A stretch of DNA of 4,726 nucleotides from a virus (lineage: Duplodnaviria > Heunggongvirae > Uroviricota > Caudoviricetes), in the IMG/VR virus record IMGVR_UViG_2671180846_000006, one strand, 5' to 3'. The position numbers were made by a program, and so were the translations under genes. Positions within the stretch are counted from its first letter, which is position 1. Every line of letters begins with the position of its first letter. Below, one piece after another: positions 1,076-3,493 of this stretch. Under the pieces are notes generated by a model that worked only from the letters and a program-made list of their open reading frames with translations, did not search any database and was not told the origin of the DNA.

Positions 1076-1228
1076 TCAGTCAGTGTTTCTGGCTAACCAG
1101 CGACGCGCGCCAGCTTCAGTTTTAAACGTTTTGCTTCTGGTATACGTCATCGCGGTAAACGTGCCGTCCAGGTTGGAGAATACTCCGCATACCAGAGATT
1201 CGTTGTTGCCAAGATTGAGCGTATCCAT
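1076..1228 (-). CDS. ydfA: YdfA-like small protein (about 50 aa)
   Basis: Translation MDTLNLGNNESLVCGVFSNLDGTFTAMTYTRSKTFKTEAGARRWLARNTD. GAGGT lies 4 nt upstream of the ATG at 1228..1226. It is the first gene downstream of the DicA-like repressor, as ydfA is in K-12 Qin, and I recall the K-12 protein as similar (from memory, not searched). The ORF track's 76-aa version (to 1306) would run through the operator and promoter region and has no ribosome-binding site. Confidence 0.65.
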   Translation of the reverse strand: MDTLNLGNNESLVCGVFSNLDGTFTAMTYTRSKTFKTEAGARRWLARNTD

Positions 1229-1305: not shown

Positions 1306-1334
1306 AGATTAGCCATGACTAACAATTTGGTCAA
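1306..1334 (-). promoter_or_regulatory. Putative sigma70 promoter for the ydfA-led operon (PdicB-equivalent)
   Basis: On the minus strand: -35 TTGACC (plus coordinates 1334..1329), 17-nt spacer, -10 TAATCT (1311..1306). An operator copy sits inside the spacer. Hexamers were found by eye; the -10 is only a moderate match. Confidence 0.4.
1309..1324. promoter_or_regulatory. Operator-like site O1 (TTAGCCATGACTAACA), presumed DicA-like repressor binding site
   Basis: 16-bp imperfect palindrome (TTAGC-CATGA-CTAA core). It lies in the spacer of the putative minus-strand promoter. The same 16-mer recurs at 1344..1359 (one mismatch) and, inverted, at 1853..1868. Confidence 0.55.
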
Positions 1335-1343
1335 GTATTTTTG

Positions 1344-1359
1344 TTTGCCATGACTAACA
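1344..1359. promoter_or_regulatory. Operator-like site O2 (TTTGCCATGACTAACA)
   Basis: 15 of 16 identical to O1, same orientation, centres 35 bp apart, just upstream of the putative -35. Confidence 0.5.
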
Positions 1360-1371
1360 TTTTGGGCAACC

Positions 1372-1403
1372 AAAAAGATAACGCATTGATTGCGTTATCT
1401 TTT
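1372..1403. terminator. Bidirectional intrinsic terminator-like hairpin at the 3' end of the DicA-like gene
   Basis: Perfect 9-bp stem GATAACGCA (1377..1385) / TGCGTTATC (1391..1399) with a 5-nt loop, extendable by A:T pairs. Flanked by AAAAA (1372..1376) on one side and TTTT (1400..1403) on the other, so it reads as hairpin plus U-tract on both strands. The stem includes the dicA stop codon (1395..1397). Confidence 0.5.
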
Positions 1404-1802
1404 GTTTGTTCGTTGACGGGCTTTTAATAACTCTTCAAAGAGTTTGTTGAAATTTTTTACTCGGGCGCGCATCTCGGTGAGCTGAGCATCCTGTTCTGAT
1501 TCAGGCAATGCATTAAAAAGCTCAAGGAGCTCATGTTCTTTGGGGGATAGAGCAACTGGCTCCTCAATAGGTGGTGATGGCTGCTTGTCTTCATCGCCAA
1601 ATAGAATCCATGTTGGCGAGCACTGCAGTACTTTGCTGAGGGCAAAAAGATTCTTTCCTGTAGGTTCGCTATCATCCCGCTCCCATTGTGAAACCGATAC
1701 GTGAGAAATTTTCAGGACTTTAGCAAGAGACCTTTGGGTGTATTTGAGGTTTTTTCGGCGATATCTAATGCGTTCGCCAATGGTTAAATTTTTTGTATCC
1801 AT
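1395..1802 (-). CDS. dicA: DicA-like prophage repressor (XRE-family HTH, CI analog, 135 aa, no C-terminal S24 peptidase domain)
   Basis: Translation MDTKNLTIGERIRYRRKNLKYTQRSLAKVLKISHVSVSQWERDDSEPTGKNLFALSKVLQCSPTWILFGDE... has an N-terminal XRE-type helix-turn-helix (QRSLAKVLKISHVSVSQWE) and a length and sequence I recognise as K-12 Qin DicA-like. Divergent from a Cro-like gene and flanked by repeated operators. Confidence 0.88.
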   Translation of the reverse strand: MDTKNLTIGERIRYRRKNLKYTQRSLAKVLKISHVSVSQWERDDSEPTGKNLFALSKVLQCSPTWILFGDEDKQPSPPIEEPVALSPKEHELLELFNALPESEQDAQLTEMRARVKNFNKLFEELLKARQRTNKR

Positions 1803-1824
1803 AGTTAGCTAATGCTAAATCTTA

Positions 1825-1853
1825 TTGACTATGTTTTTGTTAACATCTATTTT
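1825..1853 (+). promoter_or_regulatory. Putative sigma70 promoter for the DicC-like gene
   Basis: -35 TTGACT (1825..1830), 17-nt spacer, -10 TATTTT (1848..1853). Operator O3 overlaps the -10 and start region. AAGGTG ribosome-binding site at 1874..1879, 6 nt before the ATG at 1886. Confidence 0.45.
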
Positions 1854-1870
1854 GTTAGTCATGGCTAACA
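1853..1870. promoter_or_regulatory. Operator-like site O3 (TGTTAGTCATGGCTAACA), inverted copy of O1
   Basis: The reverse complement of 1853..1868 is TTAGCCATGACTAACA, identical to O1. It sits between the divergent dicA and dicC starts, overlapping the putative dicC -10. Confidence 0.55.
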
Positions 1871-1885
1871 ATCAAGGTGCTTTAA

Positions 1886-2113
1886 ATGCTTAAAACTGAC
1901 GCACTTTTGTATTTCGGTTCAAAAACAAAACTTGCACAAGCTGCTGGTATTCGTTTGGCTTCGCTTTATAGCTGGAAAGGGGAGCTAGTACCTGAAGGTC
2001 GCGCGATGCGCCTGCAAGAGGCATCCGGCGGGGAACTTCAGTACGACCCCAANNNNNNNNNNNNNNNNNNNNNNNNNNNNNNNNNNNNNNNNNNNNNNNN
2101 NNNNCGATATTAA
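1886..2113 (+). CDS. dicC: DicC-like Cro analog (small HTH regulator); 3' third obscured by the N-run
   Basis: Translation MLKTDALLYFGSKTKLAQAAGIRLASLYSWKGELVPEGRAMRLQEASGGELQYDP... matches my memory of K-12 DicC. Divergent from dicA with a good ribosome-binding site. The frame resumes after the Ns and stops at TAA 2111..2113; the 75-aa length is valid only if the N-run length is exact. Confidence 0.8.
   Translation: MLKTDALLYFGSKTKLAQAAGIRLASLYSWKGELVPEGRAMRLQEASGGELQYDPXXXXXXXXXXXXXXXXXXRY
2053..2104. other. Run of 52 N (assembly gap or masked bases)
   Basis: Directly visible. It interrupts the 3' end of dicC and hides the 5' end of the next ORF. Confidence 0.97.
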
Positions 2114-2547
2114 TCACGGAAGCATTCTGGGCTCTGAAAGAACGCCCGAACATCGATGTTCAACGCATCACGTTTAATGATGGCGAGGTTGATCAACGGG
2201 CACTGGGCGTTAACCGGGTGAAGATATTCGAACGCTGGAAGGCTATCGACACCAGGGATAAGCGTGAAAAATTCACGGCGCTGATTCCGGCAATTATGGA
2301 GGCTATCCGGATTAGTGATTTCAGGTTGTACCGCGAAATTACTGACGGAAAAAGCATTACGTACATGATTGCCGGGTTAAACAAAGAATATGGCGATGTG
2401 GTGGAGTCCGGGCTGCTTTTTGCAGATCCAGCTGTTGTGGAACGTGAGACAGACGAGCTTATAGAAAAAGCAATCGCTTTCAAGCGTGCCTATCGTCACC
2501 AGTACCAACAAAAAGCCGGATGGAATTATGAGCCTTCTTTTTGCTGA
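2105..2547 (+). CDS. Probable YdaT-like protein (CII-functional-analog family), 5' end lost in the N-run
   Basis: This frame is open from the gap to TGA at 2545..2547. The visible 147 aa (...KIFERWKAIDTRDKREKFTALIPAIMEAIRISDF...ELIEKAIAFKRAYRHQYQQKAGW) resemble what I recall of Rac/CP-933P YdaT, and the gene sits in the CII position after the Cro analog. The ORF track's GTG start at 2218 is unlikely to be real because the frame is open upstream. Family assignment is from memory. Confidence 0.5.
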
Positions 2548-3493
2548 ACGCCCGCTGGTTATAAACACACAGCTGGCGATGAAGATTGGTTTAAACGAAG
2601 CCATTGTGTTGCAGCAACTGCATTACTGGTTGAGGGATACCAGTTCCGGCATGGAATGTGATGGCGTTCGCTGGATTTACAACACAACGGAACAATGGCT
2701 GGAACAGTTTCCGTTCTGGTCAGAGTCAACGTTAAAGCGTGCGTTTGCAAGTCTGAAAGCGCTGGGGCTTTTGCGTAGCGAAAAGCTCAATAAATCGAAG
2801 CGTGATATGACTAATTTTTACACAATTAACTACGATAGCGCGCTTTTAGATGATGGCAAAGTGAACGAATCCATCGGGTCAAAATGCGCCACTCCATCAG
2901 GTCAAAATGACACGATGGAAGAGGTCAAAATGAAACGTTCCATTGGTTCAAAACGGCCCAATGTCATCAGGTCAAAATGGCCCGATGATCCTACAGAGAA
3001 TACAACAGAGAATACAACAGAGAATAAAAAACTCTCTTGTCCGGACGCTTCGCAACCGGACGAGTTGACGGCTGAACAGGCGTTTTTAACCCGCCATCCT
3101 GATGCAGTTGTGTTCAGCGTGAAAAAACGCCAGTGGGGAACCCGGGAGGATTTGACATGTGCGCAGTGGATCTGGGGGCGGGTTGTAAACCTGTACGAAC
3201 AGGCTGCCAGTGACGATGGTGAGATCACGCGACCGAAAGAGCCCAACTGGACGGCGTGGGCCAATGACGTGCGCACAATGCGGATGCTGGATGGAAGAAG
3301 TCACAGACAAATTTGCGAAATGTTCAGCCGGGCACAACGGGATCCGTTCTGGATAAAAAACATCAAGAGCCCGGAAAAACTCCGTGAGAAATGGGATGAA
3401 CTGGTTATTCGACTGTGGCGTGGTCCCGCGCAGCGTTGCGTGAATCATATTTCTGAACCGGATACCGAAATTCCGCCGGGTTTCAGGGGGTAG
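2528..3493 (+). CDS. Phage replication initiator (lambda O-like replisome organizer) with iterons inside the coding sequence
   Basis: 322-aa ORF from ATG 2528 (MSLLFAERPLVINTQLAMKIGLNEAIVLQQLHYWL...); the track's 335-aa version starts at GTG 2486 with no ribosome-binding site. N-terminal winged-helix-like domain, then a low-complexity linker encoded by direct repeats, then a C-terminal domain. Immediately followed by a DnaC-like gene. Overlaps the upstream ORF by 20 nt. Confidence 0.75.
   Translation: MSLLFAERPLVINTQLAMKIGLNEAIVLQQLHYWLRDTSSGMECDGVRWIYNTTEQWLEQFPFWSESTLKRAFASLKALGLLRSEKLNKSKRDMTNFYTINYDSALLDDGKVNESIGSKCATPSGQNDTMEEVKMKRSIGSKRPNVIRSKWPDDPTENTTENTTENKKLSCPDASQPDELTAEQAFLTRHPDAVVFSVKKRQWGTREDLTCAQWIWGRVVNLYEQAASDDGEITRPKEPNWTAWANDVRTMRMLDGRSHRQICEMFSRAQRDPFWIKNIKSPEKLREKWDELVIRLWRGPAQRCVNHISEPDTEIPPGFRG
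2872..2979. repeat. Iteron array: 4 good copies and 1 degenerate copy of CATCAGGTCAAAATG at about 23-bp spacing (putative ori)
   Basis: Core GGTCAAAATG at 2877, 2900, 2923 and 2970, with a degenerate GGTTCAAAACG at 2945. The 15-mer CATCAGGTCAAAATG is identical at 2895..2909 and 2965..2979; 2872..2886 differs at one base. Located in the linker of the O-like gene, the classical lambdoid origin position. Confidence 0.6.
2994..3029. repeat. 12-bp tandem repeat ACAGAGAATACA x3 (third copy imperfect), encoding TENTTENTTEN
   Basis: Directly visible perfect tandem copies at 2994..3005 and 3006..3017, and an imperfect copy at 3018..3029. In frame within the O-like ORF. A-rich, followed by AAAAAA, immediately downstream of the iterons. 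Confidence 0.9.

Follow-up and report, generated by a model that had tools for sequence, protein, structure and literature searches.

Does one repressor hold both outward promoters of this lambdoid immunity region in check and, if so, through which sites? The window, a stretch of 4,726 nucleotides, is 100% identical to a lambdoid prophage of E. coli O26 RM10386 that is annotated with dicC, an HTH protein, DUF1391 and dicB. It carries, on either side of a gene for a DicA-type repressor, copies of a palindrome that an earlier note, made from the letters alone, had read as operators for both a dicC promoter and a ydfA-operon promoter. The repressor gene and dicC, which codes for a Cro analogue (Pfam P22_Cro, E 1e-11), are divergent, and the 83-bp intergenic region between them holds the dicC promoter and the palindrome termed Oc. 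The 3′ end of dicC is masked by a run of Ns (2054-2104), and the masked stretch was read from L001. To the left, the ydfA-like gene is the first of the repressed leftward operon, with dicB further along and outside the window (L001 7464-7652); the window also codes for a YdaT-family protein. The coordinates of these features are collected in Table 1.

Table 1. Operators, promoters, genes and terminator assigned in the immunity region (window coordinates; operators and promoters are predicted)
Feature	Position	Strand	Sequence or basis
Promoter-proximal operator, ydfA/dicB-operon promoter	1307..1324 (20-mer 1306-1325)		18-mer GATTAGCCATGACTAACA
Promoter-distal operator, ydfA/dicB-operon promoter	1342..1359 (20-mer 1341-1360)		18-mer TGTTTGCCATGACTAACA
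Oc, operator over dicC promoter -10 and start site	1853..1870 (20-mer 1852-1871)		18-mer TGTTAGTCATGGCTAACA
Fourth, divergent member of the operator family	1805..1818		TTAGCTAATGCTAA; core TTAG-N6-CTAA; centre and flanks differ
dicC promoter	1825..1853	+	TTGACT, 17-bp spacer, TATTTT (1848-1853); promoter scan
ydfA/dicB-operon promoter -35 (dicBp orthologue)	1329..1334	-	TTGACC; read from sequence
ydfA/dicB-operon promoter -10	1306..1311	-	TAATCT, 17-bp spacer; read from sequence
DicA-type repressor, 135 aa	1395..1802	-	ORF list, annotation
dicC (Cro analogue, P22_Cro family)	1886..2053	+	annotated dicC in identical record
Intrinsic terminator of repressor gene	1373..1403	-	RNA fold -16.7 kcal/mol, z -5.2, then UUUUU
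ydfA-like gene (DUF1391)	1076..1228	-	annotation; Pfam DUF1391 E 3e-28

A pattern search bore out the three 16-mer copies described in the earlier note: TTAGCCATGACTAACA occurs exactly at 1309-1324 on the plus strand, with one mismatch at 1344-1359 on the same strand, and exactly at 1853-1868 on the minus strand. When up to three mismatches were allowed, the window yielded five matches, a count that high because the palindromic TTAGCCATGACTAACA scores on both strands, against 0.05 expected, and none of 200 shuffles gave at least five. A repeat search recovered the identical three copies, with the members of the tandem pair 35 bp apart from start to start, and revealed that the real unit is a 20-bp near-palindrome (1852-1861 / 1862-1871, 90% self-complementary). 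The operator unit is 18-20 bp long and reads tTGTTAG-YYATRR-CTAACAa around a core of TTAG-N6-CTAA. Three exact sites with this core are present in the window (0.02 expected), and the 18-mer TGTTAGYYATRRCTAACA is limited to these three places in the 19 kb of surrounding prophage (0.06 expected). The YdaT-type operator TTGATT-N6-AATCAA, searched for across the window, was not found.

All three sites lie on promoter elements or beside them. The tandem left operators lie one on each side of the -35 of the ydfA/dicB-operon promoter: the proximal one occupies the stretch between -35 and -10 and extends its CTAA half-site into the -10 hexamer, and the distal one, which has one degenerate half-site (TTTG replacing TTAG), lies 7 bp upstream of the -35 hexamer, with its centre 35 bp from that of the proximal site. 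Oc, on the right, has two perfect half-sites. Both of the promoters proposed previously are present. TTGACT-17-TATTTT was found by promoter scan, is the same or nearly the same in K-12 and keeps its -35 as far as Serratia. TTGACC-17-TAATCT on the minus strand is conserved but falls under the scan threshold, because its weak -10 matches at 3/6 positions; its -35 is nevertheless invariant in 52 unique E. coli-type sequences and in heteroimmune relatives, and its -10 is kept as TAAnnT in diverged loci. Transcription of the ydfA operon would begin near 1299 (minus strand) and that of dicC near 1860. At the middle operator position of the right side TTAG-N6-CTAA was not found, and the count is two operators on the left and one consensus plus one divergent site on the right, that is, not three in tandem per side.

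At RNA level, the predicted terminator of the repressor gene spans the repressor stop codon and lies between this gene and the ydfA-operon promoter. An Rfam scan of the whole window returned no matches at E<=1, the MAFFT and RNAalifold consensus for a small leader hairpin contained no pairs, and the full leader was no more stable than shuffles. We also considered the long-range inverted repeat (1309-1325 versus 1852-1868) as an RNA stem and rejected it, because the inferred promoters and the terminator at 1373-1403 predict no transcript with both arms.

The divergent fourth site, 3 bp from the repressor ATG and identical in K-12, is where the earlier note had placed a shorter related inverted repeat. 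Its location and sequence stand, although it is not shorter, since its TTAG-N6-CTAA core is that of the other sites. It is kept at -16 from the ATG across all three specificity classes described below, and by its position it is probably the K-12 site ‘Oa’. A role for it as a DicA site is argued against by the report that ‘Oa’, identical in sequence, is not bound by DicA in vivo, and K-12 ‘Om’ is likewise not bound (PMC3441716). The minus strand of this site includes TAGCAT, which is a possible -10 of the repressor’s own promoter; a part analogous to that of OR3 is possible as well. The repressor transcript would start 2-3 nt ahead of the ATG at 1802.

The conservation of these sites was examined in related prophages. 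A repressor scan of genome contigs gave 5 loci, and scans of viral contigs were far more productive; the comparison covered 86 related loci with 48 unique operator triplets. In all of these the three sites keep their positions. The left-right operator spacing is 511 bp in 45/48 unique variants, and the tandem spacing is 35 bp in 44 of the 48 (34 bp in 3 and 36 bp in 1). Positions 1-6 and 13-18 of the operators are invariant over the 48 unique triplets, while positions 7, 8, 11 and 12 are polymorphic, and the half-site defect of the distal operator is conserved across the E. coli set. The architecture persists in Citrobacter, Serratia and viral contigs whose repressors are 65-79% identical, despite diverged surrounding DNA. 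There, as in the 48 variants, the position of the proximal operator and its core GTTAG...CTAA are invariant, and the operator centre is still more variable. Each site shows 10 different central hexamers over the 48 triplets, with symmetric forms common and both orientations occurring. The description of the site as a consistently asymmetric palindrome therefore did not hold: the centre varies freely and is symmetric in 20/48 Oc variants. By this comparison, the asymmetry of the sites in the window is an allele-specific accident.

Where relatives have another recognition helix, the palindrome found at these positions is another one too, a pattern that suggests heteroimmunity. Three specificity classes can be distinguished by their recognition helix (ISH.S.V, LSD.S.V and VAH.T.I); from one class to another, residues of the helix change along with the flanks or centre of the operator. 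This co-variation is one between just three classes, because all members of the main class share one recognition helix. The putative heteroimmune relatives have a tandem pair too, 36 bp apart, and one of them has three operators on the right. A mosaic boundary between immunity types coincides exactly with the proximal operator.

The protein encoded between the sites is 92.6% identical to K-12 DicA over the full length of 135 aa and has the same recognition helix, ISHVSVSQWERD. Its N-terminal HTH is homologous to the N-terminal domain of P22 C2 (phmmer against PDB: 1adr 2.1e-20, 2r1j 4.1e-20), with PDB matches confined to residues 6-71 (7-71 for P22 C2) and a short helical C-terminal part beyond. 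Pfam identified HTH_3 and Phage_CI_repr alone and no Peptidase_S24 (S24) domain, in line with the literature on DicA (PMC10448788). A single-sequence AlphaFold model was poor (pLDDT 56), leaving even the known HTH domain unresolved, and for this reason we took no conclusion on looping from it.

The window shares ~88% DNA identity with the dicA-dicC-ydfA region of the K-12 Qin prophage, and the sites are homologously placed. Gene order is the same as that described for Qin (Bejar et al. 1988, Yun et al. 2012, Ragunathan & Vanderpool 2023), with ydfA and dicA leftward and dicC rightward. The two also share the 16-mer of the proximal left operator, the promoter hexamers, the terminator after dicA and the 35-bp tandem spacing. 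They differ in their central hexamers (GTCATGGC in the window, GTTATGAC in K-12) and in the distal left operator, which is nearer consensus in the window than the TGTATGCTATAGCTAACA of K-12. The O26 copy, moreover, belongs to a more complete lambdoid prophage, in which exonuclease, excisionase, YdaT, replication genes and Q are present. Three operators were originally described for Qin by Bejar et al., according to later papers that cite them (PMC10448788, PMC3441716). Oc of the window (1852-1871) matches K-12 Oc, TTGTTAGTCATAACTAACAA, at 18/20 bases. In K-12 this site binds DicA in vivo and no longer does so after a single A->C change in CTAA, and positive autoregulation has been reported for DicA there (PMC3441716). 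The K-12 DicA site is annotated at -8..+12 of dicCp, which DicA represses; on plasmids it leads to titration toxicity, and it was recovered by Reg-Seq.

For the left side, DicA is known to repress dicBp, which has been placed upstream of ydfA and which its predicted operators overlap; deletion of dicA derepresses dicBp, and deletion of dicC has no effect on its basal activity (PMC10448788). ChIP-seq of K-12 DicC revealed a bound region on each side of dicA with the motif TT(A/C/T)G...C(G/A/T)AA, and induction of DicC lowered dicA 48-84-fold (PMC11430063). Our search of the literature, K-12 included, found no DicA footprint or EMSA on the two left sites, and the Reg-Seq authors listed the DicA site for dicB as low-evidence with its location unknown.

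Taken together, these data make it very probable that we are looking at a lambdoid immunity region of the Qin DicA/DicC type, with the three palindromes as its high-affinity operators. That one DicA-like repressor controls both the dicC and the ydfA-operon promoters through the predicted sites, as had been proposed, is the most likely reading, given the orthology of Oc, the repression of dicBp in K-12, the DicC ChIP-seq data and the joint change of operator and helix. A dimer of the 135-aa protein would bind each 18-20 bp site through its P22-C2-like HTH, reading the outer TGTTAG/CTAACA directly and the central YYATRR without base-specific reading. On the right, repressor at 1852-1871 would cover the -10 and start point of the dicC promoter; on the left, the two sites 35 bp apart would sandwich the -35 of the ydfA/dicB operon, with the proximal one reaching into the -10. 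With repressor on these elements, RNA polymerase would be kept off both outward promoters, and the early-left operon (including dicB) and the early-right operon (dicC, ydaT and replication genes) would stay silent. We infer repressor binding in the O26 prophage, steric exclusion of polymerase and indirect readout of the operator centre; the distal site would be the weaker one and would be filled cooperatively. DicC, the Cro analogue, probably uses these sites too.

Three other readings were weighed against this one. The sites might mainly be DicC operators, or be split with DicA, for instance with DicC favouring 1805-1818 and the left pair. The K-12 ChIP-seq peaks on both sides of dicA with their TTNG...CNAA motif, the 48-84-fold fall in dicA upon DicC induction (PMC11430063) and the conservation in every specificity class of a site, 1805-1818, that is not DicA-bound all fit such a division. 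Yet DicA binding to Oc has been demonstrated genetically (PMC3441716), and it is deletion of dicA that derepresses dicBp, whose basal activity is unaffected by loss of dicC (PMC10448788), which makes this reading very unlikely. We would in any case treat it as a refinement rather than an alternative, because repressor and Cro have their operators in common in both lambda and P22. The repeats could also be non-regulatory, either left behind by duplication or recombination where modules meet or forming the ends of a small mobile element around the repressor gene, since inverted copies flank a gene and the mosaic junction of immunity types falls on the proximal site. They stand, however, at set distances from the -35 and -10 hexamers at both promoters, their palindromic core is invariant where the centre varies and the flanking DNA has diverged, they change together with the HTH, and there is direct genetic evidence for K-12 Oc (PMC3441716). 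On this pattern of conservation we rejected the remnant or mobile-element explanation, which we regard as extremely improbable.

The remaining reading adds DNA looping: repressor at the left pair and at Oc, 511-546 bp away, would oligomerise and loop out its own gene, with stronger repression and/or control of the repressor’s own promoter as the result, as for lambda CI between OL and OR. Sites lie on both sides of the gene at a nearly invariant 511 bp, the lambda paradigm invites the idea, the positional analogue PaaR2 of CP-933P has operators at both OL and OR and forms octamers in solution (PMC8630535), and the C-terminal 50 residues, predicted to be helical, may be compatible with an oligomerisation module. 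Constant distance, though, simply follows from the conserved length of the intervening gene. The right side has one strong operator where lambda-type octamers need a pair per side, K-12 ‘Om’ and ‘Oa’ are not DicA-bound (PMC3441716), the repressor lacks the C-terminal domain of CI and C2, our structure model is of low confidence, and our search of the DicA literature returned no mention of looping or oligomerisation. Looping by the repressor is speculation, and we consider it possible but doubtful. A more elaborate version, in which a stripped-down lambdoid switch uses an S24-less repressor to loop three strong operators (one right, two left) over its own 0.5-kb gene, 1805-1818 serves not as a repressor site but as the -10 of a near-leaderless repressor promoter and as the site that the Cro analogue prefers, and varying centres tune affinity between co-resident prophages, strikes us as unlikely.

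Operators of the DicA/DicC type, as we read the three palindromes, invite comparison with other phage switches. One is P22 immC, whose C2 DNA-binding domain (E 2e-20) and Cro (Pfam P22_Cro) are homologous to those of the window; in both systems, too, the PR-like and PRM-like promoters diverge and a PL-like promoter points leftward. P22 operators, like those of the window, are 18-bp two-fold symmetric sites, although they read ATTTAAG...CTTAAAT rather than TGTTAG...CTAACA. The central bases are not contacted in P22, and the invariant outer and polymorphic central positions among relatives of the window would fit a similar mode of recognition. The arrangement differs in its strong sites, two to the left and one to the right against three and three in P22, and in a repressor that has no S24 self-cleavage domain and is therefore not RecA-inducible; in K-12, DicA repression is relieved by the antirepressor Rem (PMC10448788). 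As in lambda, one repressor would shut two outward promoters flanking its gene, and positive autoregulation (at Oc) and bistability with the Cro analogue have both been reported for K-12 (the latter in PMC10448788); unlike in lambda, the distance between operators is ~0.5 kb rather than 2.3 kb, and the repressor resembles CI in HTH class alone. The PaaR2/YdaS/YdaT system of CP-933P in E. coli O157:H7 places its repressor at the same chromosomal position; its PR, PRM and PL analogues carry repeated palindromes (half-site GTTTAGTAA), and its repressor mRNA is leaderless (PMC8630535). There YdaT lies downstream of the Cro analogue, and a YdaT-family protein is encoded in the window as well. PaaR2, however, resembles DicA little in sequence, and a toxin-antitoxin pair follows it; the palindromes of CP-933P number four on the right and three on the left; and octamerisation has been shown for PaaR2 (PMC8630535), not for DicA.

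The operator arrangement is already known biology: it goes back to deductions made on Qin in the 1980s, and validation of Oc has followed, so that no new principle emerges from the window. What is added is modest, namely base-level positions of the left operators relative to -35 and -10, a location still treated as unknown by a 2020 study, a comparative footprint over 86+ loci, and three natural specificity classes that may guide recognition-code experiments. The prophage module that these sites would keep switched off has dicB, the gene for an inhibitor of cell division, in its early-left operon; in K-12 this operon also encodes the DicF sRNA. The off state of the dicB module is therefore relevant, in pathogenic E. 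coli such as O26, to filamentation, to resistance against phages and to the induction of prophages.

The whole window was read and searched on both strands for TTAGCCATGACTAACA, allowing up to 3 mismatches. This gave an exact copy at 1309-1324 (plus), a copy with 1 mismatch at 1344-1359 (plus) and an exact copy at 1853-1868 on the minus strand, for a count of 5 matches, since the palindrome was also matched on the opposite strand, against 0.05 expected; none of 200 shuffles reached 5. The repeat finder returned the same three copies, with the tandem pair 35 bp apart, so all positions of the two tandem copies and one inverted copy described in an earlier note were recovered by both methods. The copy at 1852-1871 proved to be a 20-bp self-complementary unit, TTGTTAGTCA followed by TGGCTAACAA, and the unit is therefore better given as an 18-20-bp near-palindrome, tTGTTAG-YYATRR-CTAACAa, with the core TTAG-N6-CTAA. 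When 19 kb of surrounding prophage was searched, the degenerate 18-mer was found only at these three places, which we call proximal (1307-1324), distal (1342-1359) and Oc (1853-1870). For the bare core the window has 3 occurrences, where 0.02 are expected; the third of these is at 1805-1818. The repeats are real, non-random and conserved.

The surrounding DNA (1000-2050) matches a prophage of E. coli O26 str. RM10386 at 100% identity; its identity to the K-12 prophage Qin is ~88%. The O26 annotation runs rightward from integrase remnants, excisionase, exonuclease and dicB, through a DUF1391 (ydfA-like) gene, an HTH protein and dicC, to a YdaT-family protein, replication genes and an antiterminator. 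The order of ydfA, dicA and dicC is the same in K-12, where ydfB and ydfC fill the slot held here by two hypothetical genes; the 212-aa product has no Pfam match. Over residues 7-71 the repressor matches the DNA-binding domain of P22 C2, whose structure is solved (E 2e-20); Pfam gives HTH families only for this protein, with no S24 peptidase domain found, and assigns DicC to the P22_Cro family. A 51-N run at 2054-2104 conceals the 3'-terminal part of dicC and the beginning of the YdaT-family gene; the stretch behind it is 125 bp in the identical O26 record (L001 10055-10179), so coordinates to the right of the run are off by 74 bp. Further right, five 23-bp iterons (core GGTCAAAATG, 2872-2987) are followed directly by three 12-bp repeats (ACAGAGAATACA, 2988-3029), all within a replication-initiator-like gene (2528-3493), a layout that looks like a lambdoid origin embedded in an O-type gene.

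Features of the immunity region and its flanks, in coordinates of the whole stretch
Feature	Position	Strand	Description
Annotated hypothetical protein	216-425	plus	69 aa
Annotated hypothetical protein	426-1064	minus	212 aa; after ydfA in the leftward operon
Left promoter	1334→1329 (-35), 1311→1306 (-10)	minus	TTGACC, 17-bp spacer, TAATCT
Central hexamers of operators	1313-1318, 1348-1353, 1859-1864		Same positions in L008-L087
Repressor-gene terminator	1373-1403		Strong hairpin then U-run; -16.7 kcal/mol, z -5.2
DicA-type repressor	1395-1802	minus	135 aa; 92.6% identical to K-12 DicA
-10-like TAGCAT in fourth site	1817→1812	minus	
Right (dicC) promoter	1825-1853	plus	TTGACT-17-TATTTT

Alignment with Qin places the three sites in the same positions: the two share the proximal 16-mer exactly, K-12 has the more degenerate distal site, and Oc differs at 2 central bases. 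K-12 Oc (TTGTTAGTCATAACTAACAA) binds DicA in in vivo assays, and a single A-to-C change in its CTAA core abolishes binding (PMC3441716). Both the dicA-dicC and dicA-dicBp regions carry counterparts of the lambda PR and PL operators, and dicBp, upstream of ydfA, is strongly repressed by DicA, with relief coming from the antirepressor Rem, not RecA (PMC10448788). In DicC ChIP-seq the strongest signal was at the dicA locus, from which its authors infer one site on each side of dicA, with the motif TT(A/C/T)G...C(G/A/T)AA (PMC11430063). Reg-Seq recovered the DicA site at dicC; its DicA site for dicB is low-evidence and of unknown location (PMC7567609). The proposal of a single DicA-like repressor for both promoters agrees with these K-12 results and is therefore a correct rediscovery of published biology. 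Rem is the antirepressor known for Qin (PMC10448788); in the O26 prophage the segment downstream of replication (L001 13703-15465) carries hokD, a RelE/ParE toxin and its HTH partner, and an ORF6N-domain protein that is a possible antirepressor.

At the right promoter, found by promoter scan, the 20-mer at 1852-1871 starts within the -10 and spans the expected transcription start, exactly where the DicA site of K-12 dicCp is annotated (-8 to +12). The left promoter was read from the sequence. Its -35 is invariant across 52 unique related sequences and in heteroimmune relatives too, and its -10, retained as TAAnnT in diverged loci, is weak (3/6); the promoter was not reported by the scan of the window. 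The proximal operator occupies the left spacer and extends into the -10 with its CTAA half-site, which is why its outer flank reads CTAATCT rather than CTAACAA. As the distal operator begins 7 bp upstream of the -35, two repressor dimers bound to this pair would sandwich that hexamer.

With the repressor protein as query, 5 genomic and 80 viral loci were found; the closely related set comprised 86 loci containing all three regions, or 48 unique operator triplets. The same check in related prophages had been proposed earlier, and all three sites are kept throughout (48/48 triplets), with the central hexamer varying. The distal and proximal sites lie 35 bp apart in 44 triplets; three others have 34 bp, and the last has 36. 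Within each site there is essentially no variation at positions 1-6, at 13-18 or in the central A and T, while positions 7, 8, 11 and 12 switch freely, by transitions only, giving ten central hexamers per site. These four inner positions are the most polymorphic intergenic columns among the close relatives (L008-L087). The variable centres are most simply read as neutral drift at non-contacted positions; tuning of affinity, or gene conversion between co-resident prophages, could also underlie them. Oc is perfectly symmetric in 20 of the 48 variants and asymmetric forms occur in both orientations, so the 'consistent asymmetry' first described is a property of the window's allele only. Farther afield, in Citrobacter (75% identity of the repressor), Serratia (65%) and another sixteen viral contigs (65-79%), Oc is kept at -66 relative to the repressor ATG and the fourth site at -16, and downstream of the repressor gene's stop a tandem pair ~36 bp apart surrounds a -35 hexamer; the DNA separating these elements has diverged.

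Some relatives have the ydfA leader in common with the window but encode a repressor of 66% identity; their palindrome is different, TTAG-(A/T-rich)-CTAAG, and their recognition helix is VAHVTISQWERDE, versus ISHVSVSQWERDD in the window class. Identity between the two immunity types stops precisely at the proximal operator, and the heteroimmune palindrome takes the same positions, with two left copies 36 bp apart and three in the divergent intergenic region. A third class, with helix LSDVSVSQWERDD, has flanks AATTAG...CTAATA. Across these three classes, the whole basis of the comparison, operators and adjacent HTH change together, as would be expected of palindromes bound by that protein. The heteroimmune trio (L088 2301-2366, L089 2246-2310; centres 24 and 27 bp apart) makes a full OR1-3-like set, of which the DicA class has lost a recognisable middle site. 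The ydfA-operon leader (1229-1299, minus) shows ~98% identity even when heteroimmune prophages are compared. Near its 5' end, a small hairpin (GACACC-GCAC-GGUGUU, ~1279-1294, minus) recurs in 9/10 diverged loci with differing stem sequences; it gave no alignment consensus and no Rfam match, and its energies are only modestly better than those of shuffles.

The repeat at 1805-1818, previously described as shorter, has the full TTAG-N6-CTAA core in the bare-core search and is therefore a divergent fourth family member. It is identical in K-12 and, judged by position, most likely corresponds to Oa, which like Om is a sequence-predicted intergenic site that showed no DicA binding (PMC3441716). All three specificity classes conserve it; read along the strand of the repressor gene it is TTAGCATTAGCTAA, TTAGTATTAGCTAA or TTAGAATTACCTAA, within which TAGCAT, TAGTAT or TAGAAT forms a -10-like hexamer with its end 10 nt upstream of the ATG. 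We infer an overlapping PRM-like promoter from which the repressor gene would be transcribed almost without a leader, consistent with the leaderless repressor mRNAs of lambda and CP-933P (PMC8630535). The site could be an OR3 analogue and a preferred DicC target, a reading with which the strong repression of dicA by DicC (PMC11430063) is consistent.

Looping of the DNA across the repressor gene, with repressor bound at the left sites and Oc, is suggested by analogy with lambda and with PaaR2, a repressor in the equivalent position that has both OL and OR sites and forms octamers (PMC8630535). However, the Oc-to-distal distance, 511 bp in 45/48 triplets, just reflects the conserved length of the intervening gene, the right side has one strong operator only, the repressor is without a CI-type C-terminal domain, and looping is not mentioned in the DicA literature examined; a single-sequence structure model of the repressor was too poor to bear on the question. 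We consider looping rather unlikely.

Very probably, then, the DicA-type repressor, and probably DicC too, uses these repeats as operators to close both outward promoters. The whole system is orthologous to the Qin immunity region, which has been described before. Besides correcting two details of its earlier description, the asymmetry and the 'shorter' repeat, the present analysis adds the exact operator-promoter geometry of the left side, a comparative footprint and three natural specificity classes.
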